Shown here one piece after another: positions 1 to 16,776 of a DNA stretch of 64,000 nucleotides. Numbering within the stretch: the first letter of the stretch is position 1; every line of letters starts with the position of its first letter. The stretch is from Gammaproteobacteria bacterium (lineage in GTDB: Bacteria > Pseudomonadota > Gammaproteobacteria > CBDBNL01 > JAAOII01), in NCBI GenBank assembly GCA_965209035.1, contig OZ242372.1:736001-800000 (forward strand). The letters are read 5' to 3'. The notes below the pieces were generated by a model. It searched no databases. It saw nothing but the letters and a program-made list of their open reading frames with translations, and was not told the origin of the DNA. The translations under genes were made by a program, and so were the position numbers.

Positions 1-1762
1 GTTTGGGTTTTAGTTGCACGGCTTGTAAAATGCGTTGCTGTCCCGGGGTGAGTGGGTGCGGGTTGTGGTAATAGTTGCCGATGGGATCGCGTTGGATAGT
101 TGCTTTGAAGTTGCGCAGTTCTTTGAGGATCTTCTTGGTGGTGACGATTTCCTCGGTCTTGTTTTTTTGCGGCGGCTGCGGTCGGGCATCTAGATCGGTG
201 AACGGCAGCATTTCGGTGGTCCACACGGTGGTGGGTGCGGGCTTTTGTTGGCGGAGGACATACCGCAAGCGGCGGATGGCGGCAAACGCCAGATAGCAGA
301 GGGCGAAATGGGCGCGGATGCGCTCGGGTTTCCAATGGAAGGTCGGGCGGATTTGCAGATCACTTTTAAGATCCCGGAAGCCGTGTTCAATGGCATACAG
401 TTGTTTGTAGTAAGTGTAGGCGGTTTGGTAGTCAATATTGGGCGAGGCCTGCACGCCATAGAGACCGATTTCTTGCATCGCCTGCTTGATGGCGGCGGTG
501 TTCAGTGTGGTGATGCCGTTGTTGGATAAGAACTTACGGATATCGGGATTGGTAATCCCCTGCAGGGCTTGGCGGTTGCCGCCGGTACTGTTTTGGGCCC
601 GCTTCAAGGCCAGATCCAGCTGATGGAGATCGCGGCGGGCGCGCTTGAAGGATAAGTTGGCATAATAATTGCGTGCCACGGTGCGCCGGTCATCGTCGGC
701 ACGTGGGCTGCGCGCCCGCGGTAGCAAGCCGAGCTCAAAGATACGGGCCCCGCCTTCAAAATCAAAGCTGTAGACCGCCGTGCGGATCTCTTTGGGTAAC
801 TTGCGTGGCGAACAGGCCATGACAAACTCATGCCCGGCCGCGGTAATCGCCGCCAAGTTGTCTTCACTGAGGAGGCCGTTGTCAGCAATCACCACCGTCT
901 TTTGGGCCCCCAGCCGCTGCTGCATCTCGTCCAAAGCCGGCAACAAGGTCGACACATCCGCCGTATTGCCGGTAAATAGTTTGTAGCCCAACGGCAAGCC
1001 ACAAGGCGTCATCCACATCCCAAAGACCACTTGCGTCCGATGGGCTTTGCCGTCTTTGGACCAACCCCTGCAGCGGAAGTCATCGGCCTGCACCGATTCA
1101 AAGTAAAAGGTCGTCGTGTCATACAGCAACAGCTGCACCGTCTTTTGGTTGAGCAATGCCAAGTTGGAACGTGCCACCCGCATCTGAATGCGCTCAATCG
1201 CGGCATCATCCAAATGATCCATCGCTTTATACATGCTGTCCTCAGACCAGCGGATCCCATATTCTTCTTCCAACAGCTGCGACAATTGCCGTTTACTAAT
1301 CCGCTCGGCCGTCAGCCGCCCCCAACTGAGCACCCGCAAACAGGCATTCAGCCGTTGGCGCCGCGGTGCCACCAACGTATCCAAGCCCATGGACGCAAAT
1401 AATTTCTCCATGACATAGGGCAGACCGTAACTGCGCGCACCCAGAGCCTGAACAAATAGTGTGGCACCCGCATTGTCTGCGCGCGTACTTTGCCGTTTTG
1501 CATGGCCACGACCACAACCGACAAACTTTTGATGCTGTGCCAAAAACACATTCACCGACTCGCTTTGTTTGAACTCCTTCTCCAAACGCACGCGCCGTTG
1601 CTCAACATCAGCACGCACCGTATCATACGCCGCACTACCGGCTTTGACCGCCGGGCTGGTATAGAGGGTCATATTCGTTGCGTTTTTGCTGCCGGATGGC
1701 TGAAAACAAAACACCACGGACAGAACCTGTCCCTTTTTTCGGGTAATTTCACGGATACGCAT
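1..1762 (-). CDS. IS1634-family DDE transposase, 3' end runs off the window
   Basis: Manual translation from ATG at 1762 (MRIREITRKKG...) is open to base 1. Motifs LLYDTTTFYFES, GWSKDGKAHRTQVVFG, LFTGNTAD, VIADNG, YKQLYAIEHGFRDLKSDLQIRPTFHWKPERIRAHFALCYLA are typical of IS1634. Not in the ORF track because there is no stop in the window. Confidence 0.9.
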   Translation of the reverse strand, partial: MRIREITRKKGQVLSVVFCFQPSGSKNATNMTLYTSPAVKAGSAAYDTVRADVEQRRVRLEKEFKQSESVNVFLAQHQKFVGCGRGHAKRQSTRADNAGATLFVQALGARSYGLPYVMEKLFASMGLDTLVAPRRQRLNACLRVLSWGRLTAERISKRQLSQLLEEEYGIRWSEDSMYKAMDHLDDAAIERIQMRVARSNLALLNQKTVQLLLYDTTTFYFESVQADDFRCRGWSKDGKAHRTQVVFGMWMTPCGLPLGYKLFTGNTADVSTLLPALDEMQQRLGAQKTVVIADNGLLSEDNLAAITAAGHEFVMACSPRKLPKEIRTAVYSFDFEGGARIFELGLLPRARSPRADDDRRTVARNYYANLSFKRARRDLHQLDLALKRAQNSTGGNRQALQGITNPDIRKFLSNNGITTLNTAAIKQAMQEIGLYGVQASPNIDYQTAYTYYKQLYAIEHGFRDLKSDLQIRPTFHWKPERIRAHFALCYLAFAAIRRLRYVLRQQKPAPTTVWTTEMLPFTDLDARPQPPQKNKTEEIVTTKKILKELRNFKATIQRDPIGNYYHNPHPLTPGQQRILQAVQLKPK

Positions 1763-1856
1763 AATATACCCTATAATTATACCCTGTAAAAACTCTAAAA
1801 AACCCTTATAAATACAAGAGTTTTTAAAAATCTAAAAATTTCTTTCCGAAGTCAAG
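1..1856 (-). mobile_element. IS1634-family insertion sequence (left end and transposase; right end outside window)
   Basis: Transposase plus AT-rich leader. Probable terminus CTTGACTTCGGAAAG... at 1856 (minus strand), where the upstream gene's Asp-rich repeat stops abruptly. Confidence 0.75.
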
Positions 1857-2459: not shown

Positions 2460-2859
2460 CCGTCGCGCCCTATTGGGTTCGGGAAAATTCTTAAAGGCAT
2501 TAAAAGCATTAAAAGTATTAAAGAGACGCACAGATACCGTGCCTCTTTGTTCGCGGCGCATTGCTTTCACCGACCGCACAGGAAAAAAGTGTAACTGATT
2601 CATTATTTTCTATTGTTTATTATTGTTTTCTGTTATGATTAATGGGGATTAGATACTTTGTGACCCATAAAAAAGTAAGTGCCATTATTATTACATTAAA
2701 AAGGAGAGTTGAGGAGTAAAATATGAGCATAAATACTGGTAAATACAAGAAAAAAGAGGGTTATTTTCTGTTCGAGACTCGAGACCTTCAGAATGGAAGT
2801 TTTGGCAGATCCCCAGGCTGTTTGCAATGGATCTTGAGGCAAATGGCAAATTTTTTGAA

Positions 2860-3047
2860 GTGCAGGGGAAGAGTTCGGTTGTCATATGCGGCATCTCTTG
2901 TTTAAGGATATGCCGGCATTCAACGCCAAACTCATCGAGTGGTTGGCTTGGTATCATCTGGAACGTCTCCATTATGCCCACAAACAACTCTCGCCGATCC
3001 AATTTTTACAAAAACAACAAAAGTCCGGGAATGGGTGGGATCATACA
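2860..3047 (+). pseudogene. IS481-like transposase C-terminal remnant (integrase core end)
   Basis: EEF..MRHLLFKD..AFNAKLIEWLAWYHLERLHYAHKQLSPIQF resembles the WY-N-x-x-R-P-H...SP end of rve cores; ends in ...TCATACA, compatible with the TGT/ACA termini of IS481. Confidence 0.55.
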
Positions 3048-3138
3048 AGCATTTTCAAAACTGAGCGGAGTCGAGTATAATGATTTAGCAACAGGTGTTG
3101 CGTTAGTGAGTTGAATTCAGCCTTATAATTATAGGTAA

Positions 3139-3894
3139 ATGTTGGAACTAAAGAATTTGGAAGCCGGTTATGGTCGTATTAAGATCTTAAACAACATTAA
3201 TATGTCGATTCCCGGGGGCAGTATCGTGGCATTATTAGGCGGAAACGGGACTGGCAAATCCACCTTGCTAAAAACTATTTCCGGACTGCTAAAAATTCAA
3301 GGCGGGACAATGATATTCAACAACGAACGCATAGACAATTTGCGACCGGACAAAATTGTCAAGAAGGGATTGGTACAAGTCACTCAAGCAAAAGAAGCAT
3401 TCGTCAATATGACCGTAGAAGAAAACTTAAAGGTCGGCGCTTTTGTCAAATCATCGGCAAAGGATCTTGCCCGCAACTTGGAAATTGTTTACGGCTATTT
3501 TCCGGACTTGAAAAACAAACGGCGACAGTTGTCCGGCAGTTTATCCGGCGGCCAATTGCAAATGCTCTGCATCGGGCGCGGGTTGATGAGCGAGCCCAAG
3601 ATGCTGATGTTGGATGAGCCCAGTGCGGCATTGGCACCGCGCGTGGTCTTGGATATCTTTCGCATCATCAACCGAATTCGCAAAAGCGGAATGACTGTGT
3701 TATTGGTGGAGCAAAATGTTCGGATGGCGTTATTATTGTCCTCTTACGGATATGTCATTAAGGACGGCATGATCCATCTGGAGGGGGCTGCGGACAAACT
3801 CATCTCGGATGACAATTTACGATTGTCATACCTTGGCGGAGGCACGGTGACGCGCCATCAAGAAGATAGCCAGCCGGATCAAAACTCTCCATAA
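3139..3894 (+). CDS. livF: Branched-chain amino acid-type ABC transporter ATP-binding protein (LivF-like)
   Basis: Walker A GGNGTGKST, LSGGQLQML, LDEPS, LLVEQN. Confidence 0.9.
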   Translation: MLELKNLEAGYGRIKILNNINMSIPGGSIVALLGGNGTGKSTLLKTISGLLKIQGGTMIFNNERIDNLRPDKIVKKGLVQVTQAKEAFVNMTVEENLKVGAFVKSSAKDLARNLEIVYGYFPDLKNKRRQLSGSLSGGQLQMLCIGRGLMSEPKMLMLDEPSAALAPRVVLDIFRIINRIRKSGMTVLLVEQNVRMALLLSSYGYVIKDGMIHLEGAADKLISDDNLRLSYLGGGTVTRHQEDSQPDQNSP

Positions 3895-3917
3895 TCTCTT
3901 CATACAAACAAACAAAA

Positions 3918-4808
3918 ATGGAATTTTTTATTGATCTCTTGATTGTCGGCATATCCGTAGGGATGATCTACGCACTGGTCGCTTTGGGGATCTCTTTAAT
4001 TTATTCCGGCTTGGATATCGTTCATTTTGCCCACGGTGAAATATATATGTTCGGAGCTTTCTTTGGTTTGGTTGCATACAGAGATTTGACTTTCATCTAC
4101 CCTCTGGCGTTAGTGGCTGCCATGATCATAACCGCCCTGTTTGGAATGTTAGTTGAACGCTTGTTTTACAGACGTCTTACGCGCACCGGCGGCGGCTATA
4201 CGGTTGCCGGCATGGGAATGATCATCTGCGGCTTCGGCATGTCCGTGGTCCTCCAAAATATTGCTTATTTGATCTGGTCGCCCAAGACATTTCCTTTCTT
4301 TGTTGATTTTGGTCTGCCGATGGAAGTCGGCAATCTGATTTTACCGAAAAGTTACTTATGGATCCTTTTAATCTCCTTGGGCCTAATGGTCAGTCTGCAC
4401 CTTTTCTTAAAGTACACCAAATGGGGGCGCGCTATTCGGGCTGTTGCCAATAACAAGGATATTGCTTTTTTGATGGGGATCAATGTTCCCGTCACTATTT
4501 CTCTTATTTTTGGGTTGGCATGTGCTCTGGCGGCGGCGGCGGGTGTCTTGGTAGGACCGATCAATACCGTCCAGGTTCAAATGGGGTATCTTATTCTCAT
4601 TAAATCTTTTGCCGCCGCCGTAGTAGGCGGTTTTGGCAGCTTGCCGGGCGCTATTGTGGGCGGCTTAACCGTCGGTATTGCGGAAACACTTGGCGCCGGC
4701 TATATTTCCGGCAGCCATAAAGATATCTATGCATTCCTACTTCTAATTCTTGTCCTAATGTTTCGACCGGGCGGCTTTTTGGGGCAACACTTTAAATCCA
4801 AAGCATAA
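3918..4808 (+). CDS. livH: Liv-type ABC permease (LivH-like)
   Basis: G.IYALVALG.SLIY, FAHGE, T.WGRAIRAVA, GGFGSLPGA. Confidence 0.9.
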   Translation: MEFFIDLLIVGISVGMIYALVALGISLIYSGLDIVHFAHGEIYMFGAFFGLVAYRDLTFIYPLALVAAMIITALFGMLVERLFYRRLTRTGGGYTVAGMGMIICGFGMSVVLQNIAYLIWSPKTFPFFVDFGLPMEVGNLILPKSYLWILLISLGLMVSLHLFLKYTKWGRAIRAVANNKDIAFLMGINVPVTISLIFGLACALAAAAGVLVGPINTVQVQMGYLILIKSFAAAVVGGFGSLPGAIVGGLTVGIAETLGAGYISGSHKDIYAFLLLILVLMFRPGGFLGQHFKSKA

Positions 4809-4819
4809 AGGTTGCCCCG

Positions 4820-4842
4820 GCCGGTTTAACCGGTTTTTTCTA
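4820..4842 (+). terminator. Possible intrinsic terminator after livH
   Basis: CCGGTTTAACCGG hairpin followed by a T-run. Confidence 0.35.
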
Positions 4843-4908
4843 TCTTTTCTTTTCTTTTCTTTTAATAACTCCCTCCCCCCCCTTCTCTATCCCTATCCCT
4901 ATCCCCTA

Positions 4909-5712
4909 ATGTCATACAGAGACGAGTTAACAGGACAAACGGCACTCATCACCGGCGGTAGCAAGGGGATTGGCAAAGCAATCGCGGATATTTTATACAG
5001 AGACGGCGCGGACATTTTATTGGTTGCTTCCCAAGAACGGGGGTTACAAAAAGCAAGGGAAGAGCTCTTACAACATCATCCTCAAAAAGGCAACATAGAG
5101 ATCCTGGCAACGGACTTGCGTCGGGCGGATAATTGCCGCAGACTCTATGAGGATGTGATCGCAAAGAGTAACACAAAACCCGCAATCCTTATTAATTCGG
5201 CGGGTGCCACCCGCGGCGGGGATTTTTTGGAATTAACAGACGATGACTGGCAGGACGGCTTTGCCCTCAAGTTTTATGCTTGTGTGCGTCTCTGCCGTCT
5301 GTTTTGGCAAGATCTGGCCGCCAATAACGGGCGGGTCGTCAATATTGTCGGGGGGTTTGCCCGCACACCGCATCCGGATTTTATGATAGGAGGATCAGTC
5401 AATGCCGCCATGACAAACTTTAGTAAGTCCTTGGCCGCCCGCGGAATTCGCGACGGTGTCAGAGTGAATGTTGTACATCCGGGCTCTACGCAATCGGATC
5501 GGCTGCTCAATGTTTTGAGGGACATTGCATCCGCATCCGACAAGACACCGGAACAAGTTCAAGAAGAGCGGTTTAAAGAAGAGGGAGTCCGTCGATTAGG
5601 TCAGCCGGAAGATGTTGCAAATCTTGTCCGATTTCTTGTCAGCCGGGAAGCCGAACATATTCAAGGAATATCCGTCTCGGTGGACGGCGGTGCGACCAAG
5701 AGTATCTTTTAG
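4909..5712 (+). CDS. Short-chain dehydrogenase/reductase (SDR)
   Basis: TGGSKGIG, LINSAG, VNVVHPG, VDGG; lacks a canonical YxxxK (atypical subfamily). Confidence 0.85.
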   Translation: MSYRDELTGQTALITGGSKGIGKAIADILYRDGADILLVASQERGLQKAREELLQHHPQKGNIEILATDLRRADNCRRLYEDVIAKSNTKPAILINSAGATRGGDFLELTDDDWQDGFALKFYACVRLCRLFWQDLAANNGRVVNIVGGFARTPHPDFMIGGSVNAAMTNFSKSLAARGIRDGVRVNVVHPGSTQSDRLLNVLRDIASASDKTPEQVQEERFKEEGVRRLGQPEDVANLVRFLVSREAEHIQGISVSVDGGATKSIF

Positions 5713-5729
5713 AACCGACCCCGCCCCCC

Positions 5730-6620
5730 TTATTTTTTGGCGTTGTTCATCTTCCGTATTTTTTTCATCAGATCCACCTGTCTTTTCGCCCCGGCAAAAA
5801 TCGGATAATCCACAAAGTTGCCGCGCACCTTGATCGCGGCGATTCCCTGTTTTTCCGCTTTACGAAACTCTCTCACAATCGCAAGAGACAAATCATATTC
5901 TTCGGCGGAAGGAGAAAAGCCGGCATTAATGTCGGGTAACTGGCAGGGATGAATACAGGCCTTTCCTTGAAAACCGATTTTACGCGCGACGGCGGCTGAT
6001 CGTCGCAGACCTTCGGTGTCCTCTAAAATCGGGTAGGATGTATCAATCGGGGCTTCCAAACCATGCGCCCGAGCGGCCGTTACCAACTGATGGCGTGCCG
6101 TAACAATTGCCTCTTCGGACGCATCCCAGATTCTGTCCGTATCCGCACAAAAGTCCCAAGAACCAAAAGAAAGTTTTTTTATTCTGCCGGCGGCCGCGCA
6201 AATTGCATTCAAGGCAATGAACCCCTTCGCTGTTTCAATCACCGGGATAATCTCGGTCCCGGTACGGGAGTACTCGCGTTCCAAAGCGTTGACAAGCCAA
6301 TTCAATATGTGGCAGTCCGCCGCGGTTTCAATTTTTGGGACAATAAACCCTTTAATGAACCCTTTAATCTCCGCCCGCATTAATTGACACATATCGCCAT
6401 AGGTTCTGTCAGCCGCCAAAGTATTCAAGCGGACATAAAAGCGGCGCGTCGGATTTTTGGCAACTCGGATGATTGTCTTTAAAGCCCTGTCCTTCTCGCC
6501 GGGCGGTACCGCGTCTTCAAGGTCAACCGCCACCTGGTCCGCATCGCTCAGCAAGGCCTTACGCATCTTCGCCTCCTCGTGGCCCGGCGCAAAGAGGACG
6601 CTACGAAAGAGTTCAGTCAT
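5730..6620 (-). CDS. CitE/malyl-CoA lyase-like (HpcH/HpaI) CoA-ester lyase
   Basis: RSVLFAPG, DLEDAVP, VRLN, PKIE, IETAKG, GFQGKACIHPCQ. Confidence 0.85.
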   Translation of the reverse strand: MTELFRSVLFAPGHEEAKMRKALLSDADQVAVDLEDAVPPGEKDRALKTIIRVAKNPTRRFYVRLNTLAADRTYGDMCQLMRAEIKGFIKGFIVPKIETAADCHILNWLVNALEREYSRTGTEIIPVIETAKGFIALNAICAAAGRIKKLSFGSWDFCADTDRIWDASEEAIVTARHQLVTAARAHGLEAPIDTSYPILEDTEGLRRSAAVARKIGFQGKACIHPCQLPDINAGFSPSAEEYDLSLAIVREFRKAEKQGIAAIKVRGNFVDYPIFAGAKRQVDLMKKIRKMNNAKK

Positions 6621-7788
6621 TCTCGGAGGCAGTACAGTCTTTGATCAGGTAGTCTTTAATGACCTCTTCGTCCGGGTCCGCTCCCAATCCGGGCAAGTCA
6701 CTCGGCTGATAAAACCCTTCTGTCGGTGCAATCAATCCGTTAAACAGATCCGCTTCCGGTTCAATAAAAAATCTCTCCACCATCGGCGGGTGTTTCTCGG
6801 CGGCACACAAATGAATCGTTGCCAATAAGCCGGGGCCAAAATAAGCGGAATGTGGCGCGAGATGAACAGCCCGATGTTGCCGCACCAACCGGGCAATCTT
6901 AACAAACTCGGTAATACCGCCGACCTTGGTGACACTCGGTTGAACAAAATCAACGGCACCGCAACCAAGAAGTTGCCGAAAGGCATGCAAAGTACTTGCA
7001 TTCTCTCCGGCCGCTATCGCAACAGGCTTCCCGGTTTGTCTTCCGACTTGTCTTCCGGTTTGTCTTAATGCCGCCAAAGATTCGTAATCATCCGGCGGAA
7101 AGATGGGTTCTTCCAACCACATGAGATCATAGGGTTGAAAGCGAGAGACGGCAGTACGCGCCTCCGGCAAACTCCAACAACAGTTAACATCGGTTGCCAA
7201 CGGAATATCGTCGCCAATTTCTTTGCGCGCCGCCTCTATTTCCCTCTCGTTATTCTCGTGGAGTTTAATCGCCTTGTAACCCAACTCCAAGGCACGCCGA
7301 CAGTTTGCCCGCACCGTCTCCGAGTCTCCGTACTTAAACAAACTGGCATAGGCGGTCAACTTCGGGACGGGGACGGTGACACTCCGCGCACCCTCATGCT
7401 CCGTTTCGCACAAAAGAGCGAACAAAGGTTTGCCCGCAAGTTTTCCTTTCAGATCCCAAAGAGCGATGTCCGCACCCGCAAGAGCAAACATCCCGATACC
7501 GGAATGCCCGTATGTATGCATTTGTTGTCGCACGCTGTGCATCAGATCGTCGATCTTGTCGACTGACTTTCCCACCAAAAGAGGAACAAACATATCACGC
7601 AACGCAAACACCACGGCTCTCCAACAAGAGTAACCGAAAGATTCCCCCCAGCCTACCGCCCCCTCGTCTGTCTCAATTCTTACCAAGACCACACAAATAC
7701 TCTTCCAATCCGCCCCCTTGAAGCCGCCGGCACCGAGAGTATCCACAGGCAATCGCAAGGGAAAAATTTGAATGTCTTTAATAATCAT
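6613..7788 (-). CDS. Mandelate racemase/muconate lactonizing (enolase superfamily) enzyme
   Basis: G.VGWGE, DIALWDLKGK..GKPL..LL; metal ligands D(VN), (L)EEP, (G)EN; APH. Confidence 0.88.
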   Translation of the reverse strand: MIIKDIQIFPLRLPVDTLGAGGFKGADWKSICVVLVRIETDEGAVGWGESFGYSCWRAVVFALRDMFVPLLVGKSVDKIDDLMHSVRQQMHTYGHSGIGMFALAGADIALWDLKGKLAGKPLFALLCETEHEGARSVTVPVPKLTAYASLFKYGDSETVRANCRRALELGYKAIKLHENNEREIEAARKEIGDDIPLATDVNCCWSLPEARTAVSRFQPYDLMWLEEPIFPPDDYESLAALRQTGRQVGRQTGKPVAIAAGENASTLHAFRQLLGCGAVDFVQPSVTKVGGITEFVKIARLVRQHRAVHLAPHSAYFGPGLLATIHLCAAEKHPPMVERFFIEPEADLFNGLIAPTEGFYQPSDLPGLGADPDEEVIKDYLIKDCTASEND

Positions 7789-7849: not shown

Positions 7850-8662
7850 TTATAGATTCTTGCGGAATCTGCGAAAATTGGGCTTGCGTTTTTCCAAGAA
7901 CGCCTTGGCGCCTTCTTCCTGCTCCCCCGTTGCAAAGTAACCCGGTGCAATTTGCCGGACCATCTCGTCTTGCCGCAAAGACAAAACGGATGCCATCTGA
8001 TGTCTAAAAGTTTCTTTAAGAATTTTTAAACAAGTGGGCGATAAAGACAACATATCCGCGGCCCATGCGGACACCTCCGCGTCCAGATCCTCATAAGGAA
8101 CGACCGCGTTAACCAGCCCCCAATCCAGCATTTTTGCCGCCGAATATCGGCGGCATGTCAGCCACATTTCTCTGGCGCGCTTGTGTCCCAGAATATTTGC
8201 CAAATGGGCGACAGTGGCACCCGCCGCCGGCGAACCCACCCTCGGCCCGTTTTGGCCAAAGACCGCGTGCTCGGCTGCGATGGTCAAGTCACAATAGTAT
8301 GCCATGTGGTTTCCCCCGCCGATGGCGTAACCATTGACACGTGCAATCACCGGTTTGGGACACTCCGTCAAATGCCGGTGTAATTCATACTCATGCTTCT
8401 TAAATTCTTTCGTTGCCTCCCAATTGACATCGCCACCGGAACAAAAGGCGCGTTCCCCGGCCCCCGTAAGAACAATGACGCCAACTTGCGGGTCTTCGGC
8501 TGCAATTTTTAAAGCACTTTGAATTTCATTCAAAGTAACGGGAGTAAACGCATTAAGAACCTGCGGGCGATTAATGGTGATGCGAGCAACTTCATCTCGC
8601 ACCTCATAAATAATATCCTTAAACGAAGCCACTTTTAATACCGCGTTTAATGCCACTTTCAA
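7850..8662 (-). CDS. Crotonase-family enzyme, MenB/BadI-like
   Basis: ITINRP, AFCSGGD, KPVIARVNGYAIGGG, FGQNGPRVGS, KRAREMW, EG.KAFLEKRKP.F. Confidence 0.8.
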   Translation of the reverse strand: MKVALNAVLKVASFKDIIYEVRDEVARITINRPQVLNAFTPVTLNEIQSALKIAAEDPQVGVIVLTGAGERAFCSGGDVNWEATKEFKKHEYELHRHLTECPKPVIARVNGYAIGGGNHMAYYCDLTIAAEHAVFGQNGPRVGSPAAGATVAHLANILGHKRAREMWLTCRRYSAAKMLDWGLVNAVVPYEDLDAEVSAWAADMLSLSPTCLKILKETFRHQMASVLSLRQDEMVRQIAPGYFATGEQEEGAKAFLEKRKPNFRRFRKNL

Positions 8663-8677
8663 TATTCTTCAATGTTT

Positions 8678-10705
8678 TCAATGCGTCTTAGCCGACAACC
8701 GTTGAAACAGATACTCTTTTTGTAAACTGCGAACCGCCGCCGGATTCATCACAGACGACACATCCTTTATTTCTTCTCCCATCAAAGCCGACCTTATGGT
8801 TTTACGCATAATTTTCATCGTTCGCGTTTTGGGAAGATCCGCCACTTGCAAGATATGCTTGGGGCAAAAAGAACGCCCCAGATCCTTTGTGATTCTACGG
8901 GTTAAAAGCTCTTCAAGTTCCGCGGCCGAAACATCTTCTTGCCCTTCGGTATCCTTCGGGACATACAAACACAAAATCATATTCCCGGTGTGCTCATCCG
9001 GCAGCCCTATAGCCGCGCATTCCAACACGCGCCCGCTGTGCATCATAGAATTCTCAATTTCAGCCGGGCCGACCCGCTTACCGGAAATCTTGATCACATC
9101 ATCGGACCTCCCGTGAATGAACCAAAAGCCATCCTCGTCACGGGAAACAAGATCGCCGTGCGCCCAATAACCCGGTATTTTATTCCAATAATTTTCCAAG
9201 TAGCCTTTCGGATTCTTCCACAACCCGGCGGTTAACCCGACAGACGAGTGCGTCATGACCAGCTCGCCGATCTCTCCCGTTGCAACCGGACTCCCGTCCG
9301 AGTGTCGAATTTCCGCCCCCATACCGGGTATGGCAATAGAAAAGCCGCCGCGTTTTAGCGGGTGATGCAGGTCGCACAAAAGTATGGAGCCGCTGACTTC
9401 GGTACCGCCGGCCGAATTGAGAATAGGCACCCGCCCTCCGCAAAGATCAAACAACCTGTTCCAGGCGGTTTCGGTCCAGGGTTCGCCGCCGCTAACGATG
9501 ATACGCAAACTGCTCAGATCGTATTTGTCCGGCTCGGCTGCCGGATAACGCATCATATTGCGTATCAAAGCGGGACTCAGTTCAACCCAACTGGCGCGAT
9601 AATCTTGAATCAGCCGCCAAAATCTTCCGTGCTGCGGATAGTCCGGCAAGCCCTCCGCCAGGATCATACTGCCGCCGTTAACCGCCGCAATGGTAGCGGA
9701 CTTAGAGCCGACCATCCATCCCATATCCGCCATGCAAAAATGCCGGTCTCGGGAACGAAAATCCGTTAAGATACCGTGATCAAACAGCATCTTGGTCACA
9801 AGTCCTATGTGCGTATAAACACAGCCTTTCGGACTGCCGGTCGTCCCGGATGTGTAGTGAATGACTGCGGGGGCCATGGCATCCATCGGGACTGTGGCGG
9901 TATTCTTATCTCCGCGAGAAAGAAGTTCTCCCCATTCTATGCTGTTATTCTTATTCTTATTCTTATTCTTATTCTTCCCCGCAATGTCGCGGGTCTCTTC
10001 ACAAGCATCTCCGCGAGCCTCTCCGGAAGTATCAACATAAATGAGAGACTTTAAGTCGGTAAGATCACGCCGGGCTTCTTCCAGCAACTTCTTCATAGGT
10101 ATTTTTTTACCCCGCCGCCAAGCATGTGTCACCGTTACAACCGCCTTCGCATTGGCCGGCCTTAACCGGTCCGCGCAAGCCCGAGGTCCGAAGCCGGAAA
10201 AAAGCGGCATCACTATGGCACCTATTTTTGCTATGCCGTAATACGCGATATAGGTTTCCGCCACATTGGGCATATACAACGCAACCACATCCCCCTGCTT
10301 AATGCCAAGTTCCAACAAGCCGCCGGCAAACTTGCACACCTCCGCATCAAACTGCGCGTAGGTTAGGGTTTTTCTGTCGCCGTTTTCACGCTCTTCAAAA
10401 ATGAAAGTCTTGTGATAGATATCGGATTGGCGATATCTGTCAAGACAGTTCAAAACAAGGTTTGTTTTTCCGCCGACACACCATTGCGTCCAAGGTTTGC
10501 CGCGAGAATCGTCCATGATCTTCGCGTAAGGTTGATAAAACTTCAGATCCCCAAAACGGATCACCGCATCCCACAACCATCCCGGATCCTGCCGAGCCCG
10601 GTCTTCCATCTCTTCAAAAGAATGCAATCCCTCGGCTTTCAAAAACTCACTTTGCCCGGAAGAAGCGATCAGTGCCTCGGAGGGCGACCAGGCATAAGCC
10701 GACAT
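8678..10705 (-). CDS. Acetyl-CoA synthetase-like acyl-CoA ligase
   Basis: YTSGTTGSPKG, GGTE, HGD, GRSDDVIKISGKR, LPKTRTMKIMR; contains a (KN)n insert. Confidence 0.9.
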   Translation of the reverse strand: MSAYAWSPSEALIASSGQSEFLKAEGLHSFEEMEDRARQDPGWLWDAVIRFGDLKFYQPYAKIMDDSRGKPWTQWCVGGKTNLVLNCLDRYRQSDIYHKTFIFEERENGDRKTLTYAQFDAEVCKFAGGLLELGIKQGDVVALYMPNVAETYIAYYGIAKIGAIVMPLFSGFGPRACADRLRPANAKAVVTVTHAWRRGKKIPMKKLLEEARRDLTDLKSLIYVDTSGEARGDACEETRDIAGKNKNKNKNKNNSIEWGELLSRGDKNTATVPMDAMAPAVIHYTSGTTGSPKGCVYTHIGLVTKMLFDHGILTDFRSRDRHFCMADMGWMVGSKSATIAAVNGGSMILAEGLPDYPQHGRFWRLIQDYRASWVELSPALIRNMMRYPAAEPDKYDLSSLRIIVSGGEPWTETAWNRLFDLCGGRVPILNSAGGTEVSGSILLCDLHHPLKRGGFSIAIPGMGAEIRHSDGSPVATGEIGELVMTHSSVGLTAGLWKNPKGYLENYWNKIPGYWAHGDLVSRDEDGFWFIHGRSDDVIKISGKRVGPAEIENSMMHSGRVLECAAIGLPDEHTGNMILCLYVPKDTEGQEDVSAAELEELLTRRITKDLGRSFCPKHILQVADLPKTRTMKIMRKTIRSALMGEEIKDVSSVMNPAAVRSLQKEYLFQRLSAKTH

Positions 10706-10706
10706 T

Positions 10707-11741
10707 TTATTTGTCCTTCGCTTTCTTATCGTTAATCATTTTGCCGCGCAAAGAAGGGGCAACATAAATATTATTAATTCTGTGAACACCTCCCGCCGGA
10801 TAAAAGACCCCCTCATAATGTGCTTCCTCCGGAGTGATATCATAATGATAATGTCCGCCTTGTTGTTTATCTTCCATGTGATAAAAGTGGGTATGCTCGT
10901 GCGAAGGTCGCAGATGCAACCTACCGCCCGTTGGATCGCCGCTCCAAAGGACACTGAAGTTGACAAGATTCGGACCCATCGTCTCATAAAACTGCAGAAA
11001 GTCCCGAAACACTTCATCTTTTTCCTCGTCATAATATTGATGCGCGATGCATTCAAAGTTCGGCATGATATGCGAACGCACCTTGCCCCCCTTCATTTCA
11101 AACACACCGCCCATACCCAATTGCTCACCCTTACCTCTCTCGCGACACAGGTTCACCAACCCCTTGCGAATGTTTAGAGGAAAAGAGCCACTCTTGCCAA
11201 TTCGCTTTTTGACTTTAATATGCATCACATCGCCGGGATTGCCTTCACAAAGAAAGAAGTTTGCCAAGCCACCGTGCAAATAAGAATCATAAGGTTCCAG
11301 AACCGCCCGCTCATCCTCGCCGACGCGCGCCGCTTTGGAACGATTGACGGCATCGCCCAAATGCGCGGAGGCTATTAATTCGCCGCAATTCCCGCCAAGG
11401 ACATCCCGGTGGGCGATGCCCGCACCCAGAATATGACCGCCCGGCAAGCCGCAGGCTGCCGCCAGTCCATCCATATGAAAGCAAATATCCCGGTATGCGG
11501 TATGATGCGCATAGGGCTCACCGCCCAACTCTATGAGTCGTGCGGAACCGCATAATCCGGCAGACGCCGAACCCAAATCGGACAGATCCGGACAGGGTGC
11601 GATTCCCACATCCACAAACGCGTAATCCTCGCGCAGACTCTGTTCCACGGCTGCCGCGAGCATCTCCAACGGCAGCAATGCAAAATCAGCGGAATCCGCC
11701 CACAAGGTCGGATTCTTTAAGGTCCCCTCTTCAACCCGCAT
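10707..11741 (-). CDS. DUF1907 / C11orf54 (PTD012)-like Zn-dependent enzyme
   Basis: CPDL, G.CG..RL.ELGG.PY, ILGAG, ANFFLCEGNPG.V, LGMGGVF, HIMP.F, EHTHF...GGHYHYDITP....YEG.F (three-His Zn site). Likely start 11741, overlapping the panE-like stop. Confidence 0.82.
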   Translation of the reverse strand: MRVEEGTLKNPTLWADSADFALLPLEMLAAAVEQSLREDYAFVDVGIAPCPDLSDLGSASAGLCGSARLIELGGEPYAHHTAYRDICFHMDGLAAACGLPGGHILGAGIAHRDVLGGNCGELIASAHLGDAVNRSKAARVGEDERAVLEPYDSYLHGGLANFFLCEGNPGDVMHIKVKKRIGKSGSFPLNIRKGLVNLCRERGKGEQLGMGGVFEMKGGKVRSHIMPNFECIAHQYYDEEKDEVFRDFLQFYETMGPNLVNFSVLWSGDPTGGRLHLRPSHEHTHFYHMEDKQQGGHYHYDITPEEAHYEGVFYPAGGVHRINNIYVAPSLRGKMINDKKAKDK

Positions 11742-12696
11742 CGGTGTACTTGCTTTCCAATGCCTTAACATAAGCGGTCAGGATATCGTTGACCGGGGTC
11801 GGGATGCCGTGCTTTCGCCCCAGTTTTGCAACCATACCGTTGATGTAATCAATCTCTGTCGGTCTGGAATTGAGAATATCCACACACAGGCTGGACTTGT
11901 TCCCCGGGGTGCCGCCGTGAGGATCGGTGATTTGGTTGAATACCTTAACAGATTCTTCGCGACCAAACTCAAGTCCCTCGGCTGCGGCAACACGCACTGC
12001 TTCTTCTATGGCGGCATAGGACACTTTTCTAAGCGAAGGATCTTCGCTTAATTTTTTTAAAGCAACATCCAAAATACCGCTCGGCGCGCTGACCCCTATG
12101 TTCGCAAAAAGTTTTGCCCAGATGCTGCGACGAATATCGGCAACCGCCTGCGTGGGTAACCCGTTTTGGCTGAGAAAATCCGCAATCTTTTGACTCCTTT
12201 CAGACAGATCACCGGACAGATCATCGGACATCTCGCCGATATAAGTAGGTAACTCGGCATGATTACGAACACAACCCGGGCCTTCCATATTCGCTCCTTG
12301 CGCGGTCAAGCCACCCAGGACGCGATCAGTCCCAAGATGTTCGGCAATCTTCTCTTCGTTACCCAAACCGTTTTGAAAACTAATGGCTATTGTTTGTGTC
12401 TCGGCGGAAAAAAGATATCGCACCGAATCTGCGGCCGCATCGTTGTAAATCGCCTTGCATTGAAAAAATACCAGATCCGTCTCACCAATCTCCTTTGCAT
12501 CCGTGAGTGCGCGCAGTTTGATCATTCTGTCACCGCCGTGACCTATCATTTTGAGACCATCGCGCCTAACGGCATCCATATGCTCTTGCCAAGGATCGAG
12601 TAAAGTGACATCCGCCCCTCCTTCCGCCAATAGGCCGCCAAACAAAGAGCCCATGGCACCGGCACCCGCAATTGTGATTTTTAGTTTGTTCGTCAT
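11731..12696 (-). CDS. 2-dehydropantoate 2-reductase (PanE/ApbA) family 2-ketoacid reductase
   Basis: GAGAMGSLFG, FQNGLG, W.KL..N, SSL..D...RPTEIDYING. Confidence 0.85.
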   Translation of the reverse strand: MTNKLKITIAGAGAMGSLFGGLLAEGGADVTLLDPWQEHMDAVRRDGLKMIGHGGDRMIKLRALTDAKEIGETDLVFFQCKAIYNDAAADSVRYLFSAETQTIAISFQNGLGNEEKIAEHLGTDRVLGGLTAQGANMEGPGCVRNHAELPTYIGEMSDDLSGDLSERSQKIADFLSQNGLPTQAVADIRRSIWAKLFANIGVSAPSGILDVALKKLSEDPSLRKVSYAAIEEAVRVAAAEGLEFGREESVKVFNQITDPHGGTPGNKSSLCVDILNSRPTEIDYINGMVAKLGRKHGIPTPVNDILTAYVKALESKYTDAG

Positions 12697-12746: not shown

Positions 12747-13565
12747 TTAATGCAAGATAACCGAGATATGAGCGGAACCTTTTTCGGTGGAAAAATAAGC
12801 GGCCGCCAGATCACCCGATGTCACCGGCACCGGCTGCGTCAGAGAGCCTGTCAAAATTAAATCGTCTTTCTTAAGAGGCAACCCGCATGCCTTGGCATGA
12901 CAAAAAATCCACTGTAACGGCGGCATCAAATAATCTGCAACCGACATTTGATTTTTGGCATCGGCAACCGGTCTTCCGTTTAGAATCAGCCGGACTTCCC
13001 AAAAATTTGCATCATCCGGAACAACCGGAACAACAGACAGCGGTTCGGAATCCAAAACAACAAACCCGCCGTTACCGTTGTCCGCCAACTGTGCCAGCAT
13101 CCGTTCGCGGGCGCTCGCCCTGTTCATCCAGTCCGCGGCATAGCGACCGGCGGTAATATCAAAAGATAAAAAGATGTCCGCCAACTCACCGAGTTCCAAG
13201 GAAGTTGGCGAGCCCTCGCAGCCCCAATCCGCGGGTGTTTCTTTCAGACGCACCGCCAATTCACATTCAATCTTGGGTTGGCTCTTTGCCGACAGAGAGA
13301 CACAGGAGCCGCTTTCAAAAACATAATCGGCAAGCAGACGACCGGGAATTGGACCGTCATAACCTTCCGCTTTTTGAACTTCCGGTGAAAGTGCGCCAAG
13401 TTTCCAACCACAAGTGGACAACCCAAGCCGTTGAATGACCGCGTCGCGGACCCGATAAGCATCCTCGCGATGACGCGGCAACATCTGCGGCGATGGCGAC
13501 AAGGCGGCCCTATGCGGATTACGAGCCGCGACCAGAGCGACGGTTAAACTCGACGGAGCGGACAC
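12747..13565 (-). CDS. 2-keto-4-pentenoate hydratase (MhpD)/FAA-hydrolase family protein
   Basis: GWKLG, PIPGRL, IECELAV, LADNG, D.ILTGS. Confidence 0.75.
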   Translation of the reverse strand: MSAPSSLTVALVAARNPHRAALSPSPQMLPRHREDAYRVRDAVIQRLGLSTCGWKLGALSPEVQKAEGYDGPIPGRLLADYVFESGSCVSLSAKSQPKIECELAVRLKETPADWGCEGSPTSLELGELADIFLSFDITAGRYAADWMNRASARERMLAQLADNGNGGFVVLDSEPLSVVPVVPDDANFWEVRLILNGRPVADAKNQMSVADYLMPPLQWIFCHAKACGLPLKKDDLILTGSLTQPVPVTSGDLAAAYFSTEKGSAHISVILH

Positions 13566-13666: not shown

Positions 13667-14470
13667 TTAGGTGGCAAAAAACTCGCGCACCTTGTCATCC
13701 TCCATTTCCTGTCCCAGGTAGGCTTCAACCACCCCGTGATCGTTCTTTATTTCCTCGGGACTCCCCTCGGCTATTTTGACGCCATAATCCAAAACAGTGA
13801 CAATGCGACAAGTGTTCATAATCACCTTGAGTATATGCTCCACCAAGATTAAAGTAATATCCATGGCCTTATTCATACGCCGAATAATTTCCATGATATT
13901 ATCCACATTGGCGGGACTCAACCCCGCACCCGGCTCATCCAGCATGAGAAGTTTGGGTTTCATCGCCATCGCGCGCGCCATAGAAATTAATCTTCGCTGA
14001 CCGATGGAAGTTTCACTCGCCGGCATGTCGGCAAAATCCGCCATACCGACAAAATCCAAAAGATCCTTCATTTCTTTTTTTACCCGCTGCTCGGTCTTGC
14101 GAGAGGCGGGGGAGTTAAGCATCAGATCCCAAAAGTTTCTTTTAATATGGCAGTGATGCCCCACCAACACATTTTCAAGAACACTCATCTCCGGCCAAAT
14201 CCGCAACATCTGAAACGAACGAGCCAGCCCCCGTCTCGCAATTTGATGCGGCGGCATACCGGCGATTTTTTCTCCGCAAAATTCAATCTTACCGGAATCC
14301 GGTTTATAGATACCGGATACCACATTAAACAAAGTACTCTTGCCGGAGCCGTTCGGACCAATCACACCGTGAATGTCATGCTCCTTTACCGAAAAACTCA
14401 CATCGTTCAATGCCACAAGACCGCCAAAACTTTTGTTAAGGCGATCAATAACGAGAATGTCCGTCTTCAA
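13667..14470 (-). CDS. livG: Liv-type ABC ATP-binding protein (LivG-like)
   Basis: FGGL.AL, GPNGSGKST, ARSFQ, LDEP.AG, VEH, V.EAYLG. Confidence 0.9.
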   Translation of the reverse strand: MKTDILVIDRLNKSFGGLVALNDVSFSVKEHDIHGVIGPNGSGKSTLFNVVSGIYKPDSGKIEFCGEKIAGMPPHQIARRGLARSFQMLRIWPEMSVLENVLVGHHCHIKRNFWDLMLNSPASRKTEQRVKKEMKDLLDFVGMADFADMPASETSIGQRRLISMARAMAMKPKLLMLDEPGAGLSPANVDNIMEIIRRMNKAMDITLILVEHILKVIMNTCRIVTVLDYGVKIAEGSPEEIKNDHGVVEAYLGQEMEDDKVREFFAT

Positions 14471-15453
14471 GCCCGGGCGCGGTCTCGCTGGGCCGCGATG
14501 AATTTTCGGCGACTCGTATATCGCGTGATGAAGCCGCCAATGCCTTTTGGCATAAACAAAACAGTAAAGACAATGCCGAGACCGAATATGAGCAATTGAT
14601 ATTGATAATACTCGCGAGTGAGATCATAAAAAATTGTAATGATGATCGCGCCGATAATGCCGCCCCATATATTGCCGACACCGCCCAAAATCACCATCAA
14701 CAACAGAGTGACCATTTCTATGATTGTGAAGTTATTCGGATGAATATAGCCCGGCTCCAAATGCGCATACAAACTTCCGGCCGCCCCCGCATAAAAGGCG
14801 CTGATTAAAAATGCCAGTGACTTGTATGTGCGCACAGGGATGCCGGACGTTGCCGCCGCCAAGGAGTCATCTCTGACGGCCTTAAAGCCGCGTCCGAGAG
14901 ACGAGTTTAAAATATTAAAAGAAAAATAGATGCCCATCAAGGTAATCGGCATTAACAAAAAATAATACTTGTTCGGTGTGTCAAGATGAAAACCGAATAA
15001 GTTGGGTGCCGGGATGTTACCAATACCAAGTGTTGTCCCGAAGTAGTCAGTCACCGATATCAAAATTCGCACAGTTTCGGCAAAACCGAGAGTGGCAAGC
15101 GCCAAGTAGGCCCCTTCCAACTTGAAGGAAGGAACGGCGACCAAAAGCCCGACAGCGCCCGTAATAGCGATCGCGGACAAAAAAGCGAGAAAAAACGGAA
15201 AATCAAAATTAATGGAAAGAATGGCGGAACTGTATGCTCCGATGGCATACAAGGCAATATGTCCGACCGTAACCTGCCCCGCAAAACCCTTGACCACATT
15301 CAGCCCGACCGCCAGCAAGATATTAATCATCACAATACAGATCAAATGATCCACATAAAGATTGGGAGTGATTAATGGCACCGGCAGCAAAAGAGCCAAC
15401 GCAACCAGCCAGCCATAGCGCGGATTAATCTTATTAAAAAAAGAAAACTGCAT
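14467..15453 (-). CDS. livM: Liv-type ABC permease (LivM-like)
   Basis: GLN...G.AGQ...GH, G.YLALATL.FAE, GR.F.AVRD, ILGG.G, PKG. Confidence 0.9.
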   Translation of the reverse strand: MQFSFFNKINPRYGWLVALALLLPVPLITPNLYVDHLICIVMINILLAVGLNVVKGFAGQVTVGHIALYAIGAYSSAILSINFDFPFFLAFLSAIAITGAVGLLVAVPSFKLEGAYLALATLGFAETVRILISVTDYFGTTLGIGNIPAPNLFGFHLDTPNKYYFLLMPITLMGIYFSFNILNSSLGRGFKAVRDDSLAAATSGIPVRTYKSLAFLISAFYAGAAGSLYAHLEPGYIHPNNFTIIEMVTLLLMVILGGVGNIWGGIIGAIIITIFYDLTREYYQYQLLIFGLGIVFTVLFMPKGIGGFITRYTSRRKFIAAQRDRARA

Positions 15454-15517
15454 TACTCGTTTTTTGTTACGATTGCGGTTATTTCCGTATCTCTCTTAAT
15501 TAAAAGCGGACACAAAA

Positions 15518-15563
15518 ACAGAAACACCTCCCAAGCACGAATGCGGCGGAGGTGTTTTCTGTG
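15518..15563 (-). terminator. Stem-loop between substrate-binding gene and permease
   Basis: Arms ACAGAAA(A)CACCTCC / GGAGGTGTTTCTGT followed by a T-run on the minus strand; the usual position of a SBP mRNA-stabilising or attenuating hairpin. Confidence 0.6.
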
Positions 15564-15579
15564 AACTTACAAACTGATC

Positions 15580-16776
15580 TTATAAACCAAAATCAGCATC
15601 AAATGTTATAGTATCCAGCACTCTGGTTTGAAAGTTTTTACCGCCTTGGGTATACTCAATCAAAACAGGTGTCCTGTTACCGTCTCGACACTGCGGAGTG
15701 GGTGCCCGACAAAAACTGATAGGACCCGAAGCCAGACCCTGATAGTTCTTTATGTTTGCCAAAGCATCGCGCAAAGCCGCTCTGTCCGCAGCCAGCGTCG
15801 CCGGCTGATTCTTAATATCGGCATTCTCCAATGCAATCTTCATAATTTGCACCATATCCCACGCCTGAGAAAAGTCATGATCGGGCGAAGTGCCATAACG
15901 CTCATTGACCGTCTTGGTAAACTTTTTCGCAATAGGACGCTCGTCGGCATGCGAAAAGGCAGCCGCATAGAAAACGCCCTTAACCGCCTTGCCCGCCAAG
16001 ATAGGAACATCCTGCTTGGACGCCACCGAAGGAGCGACTCTTTTCACCTTTTTGGAAATACCCACTTCATAGGACTGGATAAGCATTCGGGCAACATCGT
16101 CCTGCAGACCGGAAAGAATTAACGCATCCGGTTTGGCCGCCTTGGCCTTAAGAAGAACCGAACGATAGTCCACTTCTTTTTCTTGCACCTGCGCTTCGTA
16201 CACCGGATCCACATTGTATTTTTCTTTCATATAGGCAATGGTATCTTTGGACTGCTTCAAACCGGCGGCATCGGTCGCGTAAATATAAGCAATTTTCTTG
16301 CCCACATTGTTGGCGACATATTCCGCCTGAACCGCATTATAAAAGCGGCCGGAAACAGGAACACGAAATATCCAATCGCTTCCTTTCATCGTGATGCCCG
16401 GATTAGTGGAATGCGGCGTAATCTGCGGCACCCCGGCTTTTGCGGTTACATCCACTATGGGAAGAGTGACCGAACTGCAACTTGAACCTATCACAGCAAG
16501 AACCTTGTGTTGATAGATCAACTTGTTCGCGTTGGCGACTCCTTTTTCGGACTTGCATTCGTCATTGAGAAAAACGAGTTCTATGTCGCGACCGTTAATA
16601 CCGCCCGCATCATTGATTGCTTTAAACTCATCTTCGATCATTTGACCGATTTTGAAGCCCGCATCGCTAATCATCCTAATGGTCACACCAAGTTTCAAAG
16701 TATCCGCGGATACGGAAACAGAGGCGGTCGCCAAAAAGGCAATTAACAAGACATATAATAATTTAATTGATTTCAT
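15580..16776 (-). CDS. Liv-type ABC substrate-binding protein
   Basis: Signal peptide; IN.AGGINGR.IEL, V.AVIG...S, WIFR. Confidence 0.88.
   Translation of the reverse strand: MKSIKLLYVLLIAFLATASVSVSADTLKLGVTIRMISDAGFKIGQMIEDEFKAINDAGGINGRDIELVFLNDECKSEKGVANANKLIYQHKVLAVIGSSCSSVTLPIVDVTAKAGVPQITPHSTNPGITMKGSDWIFRVPVSGRFYNAVQAEYVANNVGKKIAYIYATDAAGLKQSKDTIAYMKEKYNVDPVYEAQVQEKEVDYRSVLLKAKAAKPDALILSGLQDDVARMLIQSYEVGISKKVKRVAPSVASKQDVPILAGKAVKGVFYAAAFSHADERPIAKKFTKTVNERYGTSPDHDFSQAWDMVQIMKIALENADIKNQPATLAADRAALRDALANIKNYQGLASGPISFCRAPTPQCRDGNRTPVLIEYTQGGKNFQTRVLDTITFDADFGL

Follow-up and report, generated by a model that had tools for sequence, protein, structure and literature searches.

The human protein C11orf54 (PTD012; EC 4.1.1.34; PDB 1XCR) was identified only in 2025 as a beta-keto-L-gulonate decarboxylase, whose product is L-xylulose (PMC12337341). 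According to the same report, the enzyme binds zinc through H266, H268 and H278, its activity is abolished by the substitutions H217N and R263Q, its catalytic efficiency is lowered by an extension of the C-terminal D315, and H217 and R263 set it apart from alpha-acetolactate decarboxylase (ALDC, PDB 4BT2), a distantly related fold with a three-His zinc site. Rotifer fusions of the DUF1907 domain with the 3HCDH-type dehydrogenase CRYL1 are also described there, in which the decarboxylase domain is joined to the dehydrogenase of the adjoining pathway step. Bacterial members of the DUF1907 family have been mentioned in print only in passing. Here we describe one such member, encoded at positions 10707..11741 on the minus strand of a 64,000-nucleotide stretch from a Gammaproteobacteria bacterium (assembly GCA_965209035.1, contig OZ242372.1, positions 736,001 to 800,000; hereafter the window), together with the PanE-like reductase gene lying directly upstream of it.

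The window gene is a real and intact bacterial member of a known enzyme family, and not a new kind of enzyme or system. Judged from trees and gene neighborhoods, it is a member of one distinct PanE-coupled bacterial clade, which is not characterised in the literature found. We consider it probable that its product is an active zinc-dependent decarboxylase of the C11orf54/DUF1907 type acting on a 2-hydroxy-3-oxo acid, and that it forms a two-enzyme module with the PanE-like reductase inside a gene cluster for a sugar-like or hydroxy acid. The identity of C11orf54 as a beta-keto-L-gulonate decarboxylase, which an initial annotation of the window had stated, agrees with the account in PMC12337341. 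Abundant characterised bacterial orthologues, which that annotation had named as a reason to doubt its proposal, were not found: of the six papers given by a full-text search on DUF1907, not one concerns a bacterial member, and a search by enzyme name gave no bacterial work among the 15 best-ranked of 438 matches, most of which came from the unrelated abbreviation “bkgd”.

The DUF1907 gene and its active site

The longest open reading frame (ORF) at this place, 10707..11771 on the minus strand, starts from an upstream in-frame ATG at 11771 and encodes 354 aa, while the plus strand of 10707-11741 is interrupted by many stops. A second ATG lies at 11741 (M11 of the 354-aa ORF) and gives a protein of 344 aa. 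Three observations make 10707-11741 more likely to be the gene than 10707..11771: a start at this second ATG produces an 11-nt overlap with the PanE-like gene upstream, at its TGA (ATGCGGGTTGA); GGAAAG stands 11 nt ahead of this ATG; and the 344-aa, 97% identical relative P0002 begins at the same position. Residues 1-20 of the 354-aa form are of low confidence in the AlphaFold2 model described below. Residue numbers of the window protein are given in the 354-aa numbering throughout.

The protein matches Pfam PF08925 (DUF1907) with an E-value of 2.3e-54 and 185.1 bits against a cut-off of 25, over profile positions 2-285 of 285, a match far beyond chance. This search established the family assignment that had been proposed from motifs, and all five of the motifs then quoted were located in the 354-aa ORF (CPDL at 60-63, GGEPY at 83-87, EHTHF at 292-296, GGHYHYDITP at 305-314 and YEGVF at 319-323). 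Only DUF1907 was reported in the Pfam search, where the ALDC profile gave no match at E-values up to 1e-3, and the NCBIfam search gave no model for the protein. The sole solved relative found by sequence is human PTD012 (PDB 1XCR, E 4.7e-40).

An AlphaFold2 model of the window protein, built with a 68-sequence alignment, has a mean pLDDT of 91.3 and a pTM of 0.90. In a Foldseek search of PDB with this model, the top match was 1xcr_A (E 9.3e-30; TM-score 0.75 on the query and 0.84 on the target; 34% identity), followed by acetolactate decarboxylases only (E 2.4e-5 to 1.6e-3; TM-score about 0.5), the remainder being noise. The acetolactate-decarboxylase-like fold given for the family is thus borne out for this member.

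In the alignment with the human enzyme, H293, H295 and H307 of the window protein fall on the zinc histidines H266, H268 and H278, and H234 and R288 fall on H217 and R263. These five residues are invariant in our alignment A1. For a wider census, 173 rows were aligned, in which the bacterial clade takes 131 rows and, after the long-branch row L154 was left out, 130; all five residues are kept in 130 of the 130 bacterial rows, and the three zinc histidines are kept in 43 of the 43 other rows as well. The three-His zinc site, which had been claimed as intact, is intact in the window protein by this alignment, and metal binding is predicted.

Distribution, phylogeny and the reductase partner

The family had been thought to be mainly animal and fungal, and this view has to be corrected, since it is not so rare in bacteria: pattern scans of species-representative genomes gave 83 relatives, mostly from Caldilineaceae, Gammaproteobacteria, Alphaproteobacteria and Spirochaetia metagenome-assembled genomes (MAGs), and metagenome contigs gave 152 more. 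A word-indexed search found 39 relatives, one with 97% identity and the others with at most 59%. An exhaustive search of 1.84 billion representatives found 432 at E-values up to 1e-3 and 47 at E-values up to 1e-30; there the bacterial clade was collapsed to one representative (E 1.4e-106), and the next match was at 8.8e-66. The genome containing the window (2.24 Mb, 2 contigs, 92.7% complete) has a single DUF1907 copy, and the family was found in none of 60 related genomes (4 of the same family, 1 of the same order and 55 of the same class).

Phylogenetic trees were made by short searches with SH-aLRT support only and are unrooted. A branch with support of 99 separates the bacterial sequences from the rest in both a 173-row LG+G4 tree and a 67-row mixture-model tree. 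Inside this clade the phylum and class labels are mixed, and the well-supported branches force at least six changes for Gammaproteobacteria, four for Alphaproteobacteria and three for Caldilineaceae. The window protein groups with P0003 and P0004 (support 96) and then with P0005, P0006, P0008 and P0010 (98-99), and this group adjoins the main Caldilineaceae group, away from other Gammaproteobacteria. When fusion proteins were included, the bacterial clade (47 rows, support 95) joined 8 rows, among them five DUF1907-PanE fusions, to make a 55-row side with support of 99; a mollusc sequence, a 3HCDH fusion and a thiamine pyrophosphate (TPP)-enzyme fusion lie on the opposite side. Of the 8 sister rows, P0051 represents a cluster with a member drawn from a collection of eukaryote proteomes (“eukprot”), the sole origin hint among 10 clusters examined, and because of this member the sister group is considered to be at least partly eukaryotic. 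Inter-domain transfer of the family, which the initial annotation had suggested in either direction, is plausible from these unrooted trees and may have gone either way.

The gene directly upstream, at 11731..12696 on the minus strand, encodes a PanE/ApbA-family (ketopantoate-reductase-type) 2-oxoacid reductase, with Pfam matches to ApbA and ApbA_C and a score of 234 bits against a cut-off of 141 for TIGR00745. All 8 rows of the partner subfamily keep K72, N98, K176, S244 and E256 of E. coli PanE, and 7 of the 8 keep N180; in PMC3478992 these residues are given as the general acid and the binders of the substrate carboxylate and 2-oxygen. Conservation of these catalytic and substrate-binding residues suggests a redox reaction at the C2 position of a carboxylic acid. 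The nearest solved relatives of the partner are all deposited as 2-dehydropantoate 2-reductases, the best being 3wfi, and the partner is the single strong ApbA-family gene in its genome. It is by sequence a member of the ketopantoate reductase family.

The linkage of the two genes was examined in 155 loci, which were left from 160 after 5 loci without a usable DUF1907 match had been dropped. A PanE-like gene lies within 300 bp of DUF1907 in 69 of the 155, and of the 92 loci that reach 1 kb or more to each side, 41 have an adjacent PanE-like gene and 31 an adjacent enolase-superfamily MR_MLE gene. The pair occurs in both gene orders, often with 4-nt overlaps. Six proteins (P0042, P0049, P0055, P0100, P0194 and P0198) are DUF1907-ApbA/ApbA_C fusions, and in P0049 the reductase half shows 38% identity to the window partner over its full length (E 5e-62). 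Of the Caldilineaceae genomes whose DUF1907 has no PanE neighbor, four were searched, and all four carry an orthologue of the partner (56-57% identity) at another place; a fifth Caldilineaceae genome has it linked. In the 60 relatives that have no DUF1907, the partner gave no match above 31% identity, and a query with it against the four closest relatives found nothing. The idea that the PanE-like neighbor supplies or takes the substrate of the DUF1907 protein is strongly supported by this adjacency, by the fusions and by the co-occurrence. A D-2-hydroxyacid dehydrogenase was also considered as a second recurrent partner and was rejected, as it was found within 5 kb in only 3 of the 155 loci.

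Several further arrangements were recorded. In L058, from a Paracoccaceae MAG, the 3' part of a PanE-like gene and DUF1907 share one 515-aa frame (9431-10978, plus strand), which is either a bacterial fusion or an assembly frameshift. The N-terminal 300 residues of P0041 are unrelated to PanE. P0178 (988 aa) joins DUF1907 to a whole TPP enzyme from the acetolactate-synthase/IolD superfamily, with an identity of only 23% to an IolD; by analogy, this fusion echoes the pair of acetolactate synthase and decarboxylase and hints that some members of the family may take a carboligation product. The unlinked partner of two Caldilineaceae genomes has one or two FAD oxidases from the aldonolactone/alditol-oxidase family (FAD_binding_4 + ALO) at a distance of 2-4 kb; the regions concerned are 3320-6258 and 8280-9365 of L176 (G064:C1:3379000-3397000) and 2875-4191 and 7793-8863 of L177 (in G061). 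A His_Phos_1 gene and a pyridoxal-phosphate enzyme are close by, with a CoA transferase in one genome.

The window cluster and the contexts of relatives

In the window the pair is part of a minus-strand operon with the order binding protein, permease, ATPase, HpaH-like, PanE-like, DUF1907, acyl-CoA synthetase, MenB-like, MR_MLE and CitE-like. The first three genes (13667..16776, minus strand) encode, according to Pfam, an ATP-binding cassette (ABC) importer of the branched-chain-amino-acid (HAAT) type, composed of a binding protein (15580-16776; Peripla_BP_6, whose PDB relatives are generic HAAT binding proteins only), a permease (14467-15453; BPD_transp_2) and an ATPase (13667-14470; ABC_tran with BCA_ABC_TP_C). 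The next gene, at 12747..13565 on the minus strand, encodes a divergent FAH-superfamily protein of the MhpD/HpaH (2-oxo-ene-acid hydratase/decarboxylase) type; its score with TIGR02312 (HpaH), 59 bits, is below the cut-off, the Pfam search gave no match, a 2-keto-4-pentenoate hydratase in PDB was matched at E 2.6e-9, and a 27% identical homologue lies beside DUF1907 in the locus L144.

Downstream of DUF1907, and beginning 1 nt past its stop, is a gene for an acyl-CoA synthetase of the acetate/acetoacetate-CoA-ligase type (8678..10705, minus strand; AMP-binding, AMP-binding_C and ACAS_N; below every NCBIfam cut-off), which is 53% identical to the copy beside DUF1907 in the Caldilineaceae locus L048. 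At residues ~243-253 this synthetase carries a low-complexity insert, KNKNKNKNKNN, within its AMP-binding domain. It is followed on the minus strand by a MenB/BadI-type crotonase, that is, a C-C bond forming or cleaving acyl-CoA enzyme (7850..8662; ECH_1; PDB MenB E 1.8e-69), which scores 278 bits with MenB and 256 bits with BadI, both below cut-off, and is 67-69% identical to the L048 copy. The next minus-strand gene encodes an enolase-superfamily acid-sugar-dehydratase-like enzyme (6613..7788; MR_MLE_N and MR_MLE_C), whose best NCBIfam model is talarate/galactarate dehydratase with 145 bits, below cut-off. The last is a CitE/HpcH-type acyl-CoA C-C lyase-like enzyme (5730..6620, minus strand; HpcH_HpaI and C-C_Bond_Lyase; citE and RipC below cut-off), with a 35% identical homologue in L144. 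The order MR_MLE then CitE, with overlapping genes, is common to the window and L144, and the PDB relatives of the MR_MLE and FAH-like proteins of the cluster carry generic names only.

The acyl-CoA synthetase, MenB-like and MR_MLE genes were also considered as menaquinone genes (MenE/MenB/MenC), and this reading was rejected. The crotonase scores equally with MenB and BadI, under both cut-offs, the ligase carries ACAS_N, a domain of acetate-type ligases, the MR_MLE protein matches acid-sugar dehydratases (E 2.7e-42) far above MenC (E 1e-10), and the cluster is without MenD, MenF and MenH.

A convergent plus-strand operon at 3139..5712, assigned by Pfam, contains a second ABC ATPase (3139-3894), a second permease (3918-4808) and a short-chain dehydrogenase (SDR; 4909-5712); the best NCBIfam model for this SDR and for the SDR of L144 is PRK06125. 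The cluster is flanked by an IS4-type DDE transposase (2..1762, minus strand; DDE_Tnp_1 E 1.5e-10), which runs off the left end of the window, and beside it 1824-2603 (minus strand) encodes a small protein that looks secreted, matches fn3 weakly and has an Asp-rich tail. In relatives of the same family the def-fmt-(rsmB)-ABC synteny is kept, with nothing of the cluster beside def; since these relatives are very distant (Fmt 45-47% identical), the synteny shows only the absence of the cluster beside def-fmt. By this genome comparison, the cluster of about 14 kb is lineage-specific. Taken with the mixed phylogeny, the absence of the cluster beside def in the relatives and the flanking transposase are compatible with, though no proof of, a horizontal origin of the pair, and probably of the cluster as a whole. 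The GC profile is 0.46-0.54 over 1-30000 and gives no island signal. Between 2500 and 17600, promoter-like sites number 22, compared with 18.0 +/- 3.7 in shuffles, and terminator-like sites 29, compared with 19.7 +/- 4.2, neither count being informative.

Four contexts were distinguished among the relatives. In the main Caldilineaceae group (context A), an ADP-ribosylglycohydrolase-family gene, DUF1907 and MR_MLE follow each other with overlap; an ADP-ribosylglycohydrolase-family gene lies directly upstream of DUF1907 in 31 of the 155 loci (for example at 8976-9944 of L004). In marine Gammaproteobacteria and others (context B), a TonB-dependent receptor and a tripartite ATP-independent periplasmic (TRAP) transporter, DctPQM, are followed by the PanE-like/DUF1907 pair in either order, with PanE first in most loci, and the flanks contain RpiR, two GFO-type dehydrogenases, IolB, IolD, IolE, IolC-DUF2090, a beta-propeller phytase, PhoX and an SSF symporter. 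Over all loci, DctM, DctQ and DctP were found within 5 kb in 38, 30 and 28 of the 155, respectively, and, of the inositol and phytate genes near DUF1907, IolD was found within 10 kb in 17, a GFO-type dehydrogenase in 44 and a phytase in 9. The genome of the window has its own iol cluster (IolB, IolG-like, IolE, IolD and IolC-DUF2090; G000:C1:268000-280000), about 470 kb from DUF1907.

Context C is common to the window and L048, with SDR, acyl-CoA synthetase, MenB/BadI-type crotonase, DUF1907 and PanE; L048 has a thioesterase and a PhyH-type dioxygenase in addition, and the 67-69% identity of the crotonases is kept across phyla. Context D belongs to a divergent subclade (38% identity). In its locus L144, DUF1907 lies between IolE and IolD, both above cut-off, and MR_MLE, CitE-like, SDR (convergent) and HpaH-like genes around it represent four of the neighbor families of the window. 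In other loci of the 38%-identity subclade, L150 (3762-4847), L151 and L153, a gene of the isocitrate/isopropylmalate (tartrate-type) dehydrogenase family follows DUF1907 after about 430-640 bp.

Candidate reactions and comparison with known systems

In the reading that we prefer, the substrate of the DUF1907 protein would be a carboxylic acid with a 2-hydroxyl and a 3-keto group, the motif common to beta-keto-L-gulonate and acetolactate, and the protein would be one half of a module with the NAD(P)H-dependent 2-oxoacid reductase, which is encoded directly upstream and is probably translationally coupled to it. Two orders of reaction can be proposed. The reductase may turn a 2,3-dioxo acid into a 2-hydroxy-3-oxo acid, from which the DUF1907 protein would remove CO2 to leave a ketose-like hydroxy-ketone; or the DUF1907 protein may decarboxylate a 2-hydroxy-3-oxo-dicarboxylate, with the reductase reducing the resulting 2-oxo acid. 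A sugar-like or hydroxy acid would be taken up by the ABC importer of the cluster and processed by its CoA-dependent, dehydratase and lyase enzymes.

Several observations weigh against this reading. The C-terminal Asp that corresponds to human D315 is absent, as the window protein ends in ...KAKDK, and the last residue is D in only 3 of the 130 bacterial rows, compared with 13 of the 43 other rows, some of which are truncated. Adjacency to PanE is not universal, because about 33 Caldilineaceae loci are flanked by ADP-ribosylglycohydrolase-family and MR_MLE genes instead, and co-occurrence was judged from few genomes, which are related to each other. Furthermore, apart from the pair, the inositol/TRAP, Caldilineaceae and CoA-type contexts have little in common, so that their other genes may serve different pathways. 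The TRAP DctP proteins of L053 and L033 are only 25% and 23% identical to E. coli YiaO, a generic similarity that gives no specific support for 2,3-diketo-L-gulonate. The family, the fold, the catalytic residues, the partner linkage and the context are shown, while the decarboxylase activity, the order of the two steps and the substrate class are what we infer; the hope that the operon would name the substrate has not been borne out, as it could not be read from the neighboring genes.

A specific case of the preferred reading is a non-phosphorylating route of ascorbate breakdown, in which the PanE-like enzyme would reduce 2,3-diketo-L-gulonate, or a related 2,3-diketo-aldonate, at C2 and the DUF1907 protein would convert the product to a ketopentose. 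The partner keeps the PanE residues for reduction of a C2 carbonyl beside a carboxylate. The expected product of a PanE-type enzyme is a D-2-hydroxy acid, and this configuration may not fit L-gulonate. The TRAP transporter directly before the pair in marine Gammaproteobacteria resembles the position of YiaMNO beside YiaK in E. coli, but the binding proteins show only the generic similarity to YiaO given above, and the window uses an ABC importer, not TRAP. Similarly, aldonolactone/alditol-family oxidases near the unlinked partner in two Caldilineaceae genomes would suit such a route, while an oxidase of PF04030 was not found in the genome of the window. A scan of this 92.7%-complete genome for FGGY-family kinases gave only GlpK and a divergent 709-aa ORF (XylB 78 bits against a cut-off of 380), so that no pentulose kinase is evident, although at this completeness its absence is not proven. 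Taken together, we place this specific route on the unlikely side.

We judge it quite unlikely that the window protein is a strict functional orthologue of the human enzyme, a beta-keto-L-gulonate (3-dehydro-L-gulonate) decarboxylase that yields L-xylulose in a pentose route from glucuronate or inositol. Animals degrade inositol via glucuronate and gulonate. All five human active-site residues, including H217 and R263, are kept, but the identity to 1XCR is only 34%, the C-terminal Asp is absent, and in the tree the gene stands on the PanE-linked side, with the 3HCDH (CRYL1-type) fusion and the mollusc protein on the other. In place of a 3HCDH-type L-gulonate 3-dehydrogenase, the gene has a C2-type 2-oxoacid reductase as partner. 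Many relatives lie in inositol/phytate loci and the genome carries an iol cluster, but this cluster is 470 kb distant, and because the FGGY scan gave only GlpK and the divergent ORF, an onward route from xylulose by a xylulokinase is not evident. A zinc hydrolase or esterase, or another zinc-dependent activity, is very improbable: the old family name comes from a weak activity of the human protein on p-nitrophenyl acetate, but PMC12337341 and PMC12435205, which report it, present decarboxylation as the physiological activity, the other structural relatives are acetolactate decarboxylases only, and the steady partner, a hydroxy/oxo-acid oxidoreductase, fits a pair of redox and decarboxylation.

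Returning to the two-enzyme module, a broader picture of the family is possible, and we put it forward tentatively. The family may fall into two functional halves: animal-type members paired with CRYL1, and a PanE-coupled branch comprising bacteria of at least three phyla and probably protist fusions. The latter might be an undescribed module that converts 2,3-dioxo or 2-hydroxy-3-oxo sugar acids, such as breakdown products of ascorbate or inositol, to neutral ketoses; its history might include an exchange between eukaryotes and marine bacteria, followed by a wide spread over bacterial phyla, and in the window the module might feed a new CoA-dependent pathway composed of the acyl-CoA synthetase and the MenB/BadI-type, CitE-type, MR_MLE and HpaH-type enzymes.

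The pair points to an undescribed two-step route for the breakdown of a sugar-like acid. With its conserved and sometimes fused partner, and with its recurrence in inositol/phytate and organic-acid uptake loci of abundant marine bacteria, it offers a concrete candidate two-enzyme module for a step of marine carbon turnover. Because the family is shared patchily between eukaryotes and bacteria, it is also a case for studying inter-domain gene transfer.

Compared with human C11orf54, the window protein belongs to the same Pfam family over its full length and has the same fold (TM-score 0.84), the zinc histidines and the counterparts of H217 and R263; it differs in its 34% identity, its place in a separate bacterial clade and the lack of the C-terminal Asp. 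Relative to the eukaryote rows of A1, it also has an insertion of about 4 residues near 240-246 (the ECIAHQYYDEEKDEV region) and one of 2 residues before EHTHF. Its partner is a PanE-type reductase, whereas that of the human route is the 3HCDH-type L-gulonate 3-dehydrogenase CRYL1. ALDC acts on a 2-hydroxy-3-oxo acid, the chemical type proposed here for the window protein, but the likeness is distant (TM-score about 0.5, 10-15% identity), and the positions of the active-site Arg and Glu of ALDC, as given in PMC12337341, hold H and R in the window protein as in C11orf54. In contrast to the rotifer fusions with 3HCDH, the relatives nearest to the bacterial clade are fused to a PanE/ApbA reductase, a second natural fusion type for the DUF1907 family; a DUF1907-3HCDH fusion (P0054) was found among the relatives as well. 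In the 2,3-diketo-L-gulonate pathway of E. coli, YiaK acts first and is followed by LyxK and SgbH. The yiaK-yiaMNO-lyxK-sgbH system has the same logic as that proposed for the pair, namely TRAP uptake, reduction at C2 to a 3-keto-aldonate and decarboxylation to a pentulose, but its enzyme families are unrelated to those of the pair, and E. coli phosphorylates the intermediate before decarboxylation.

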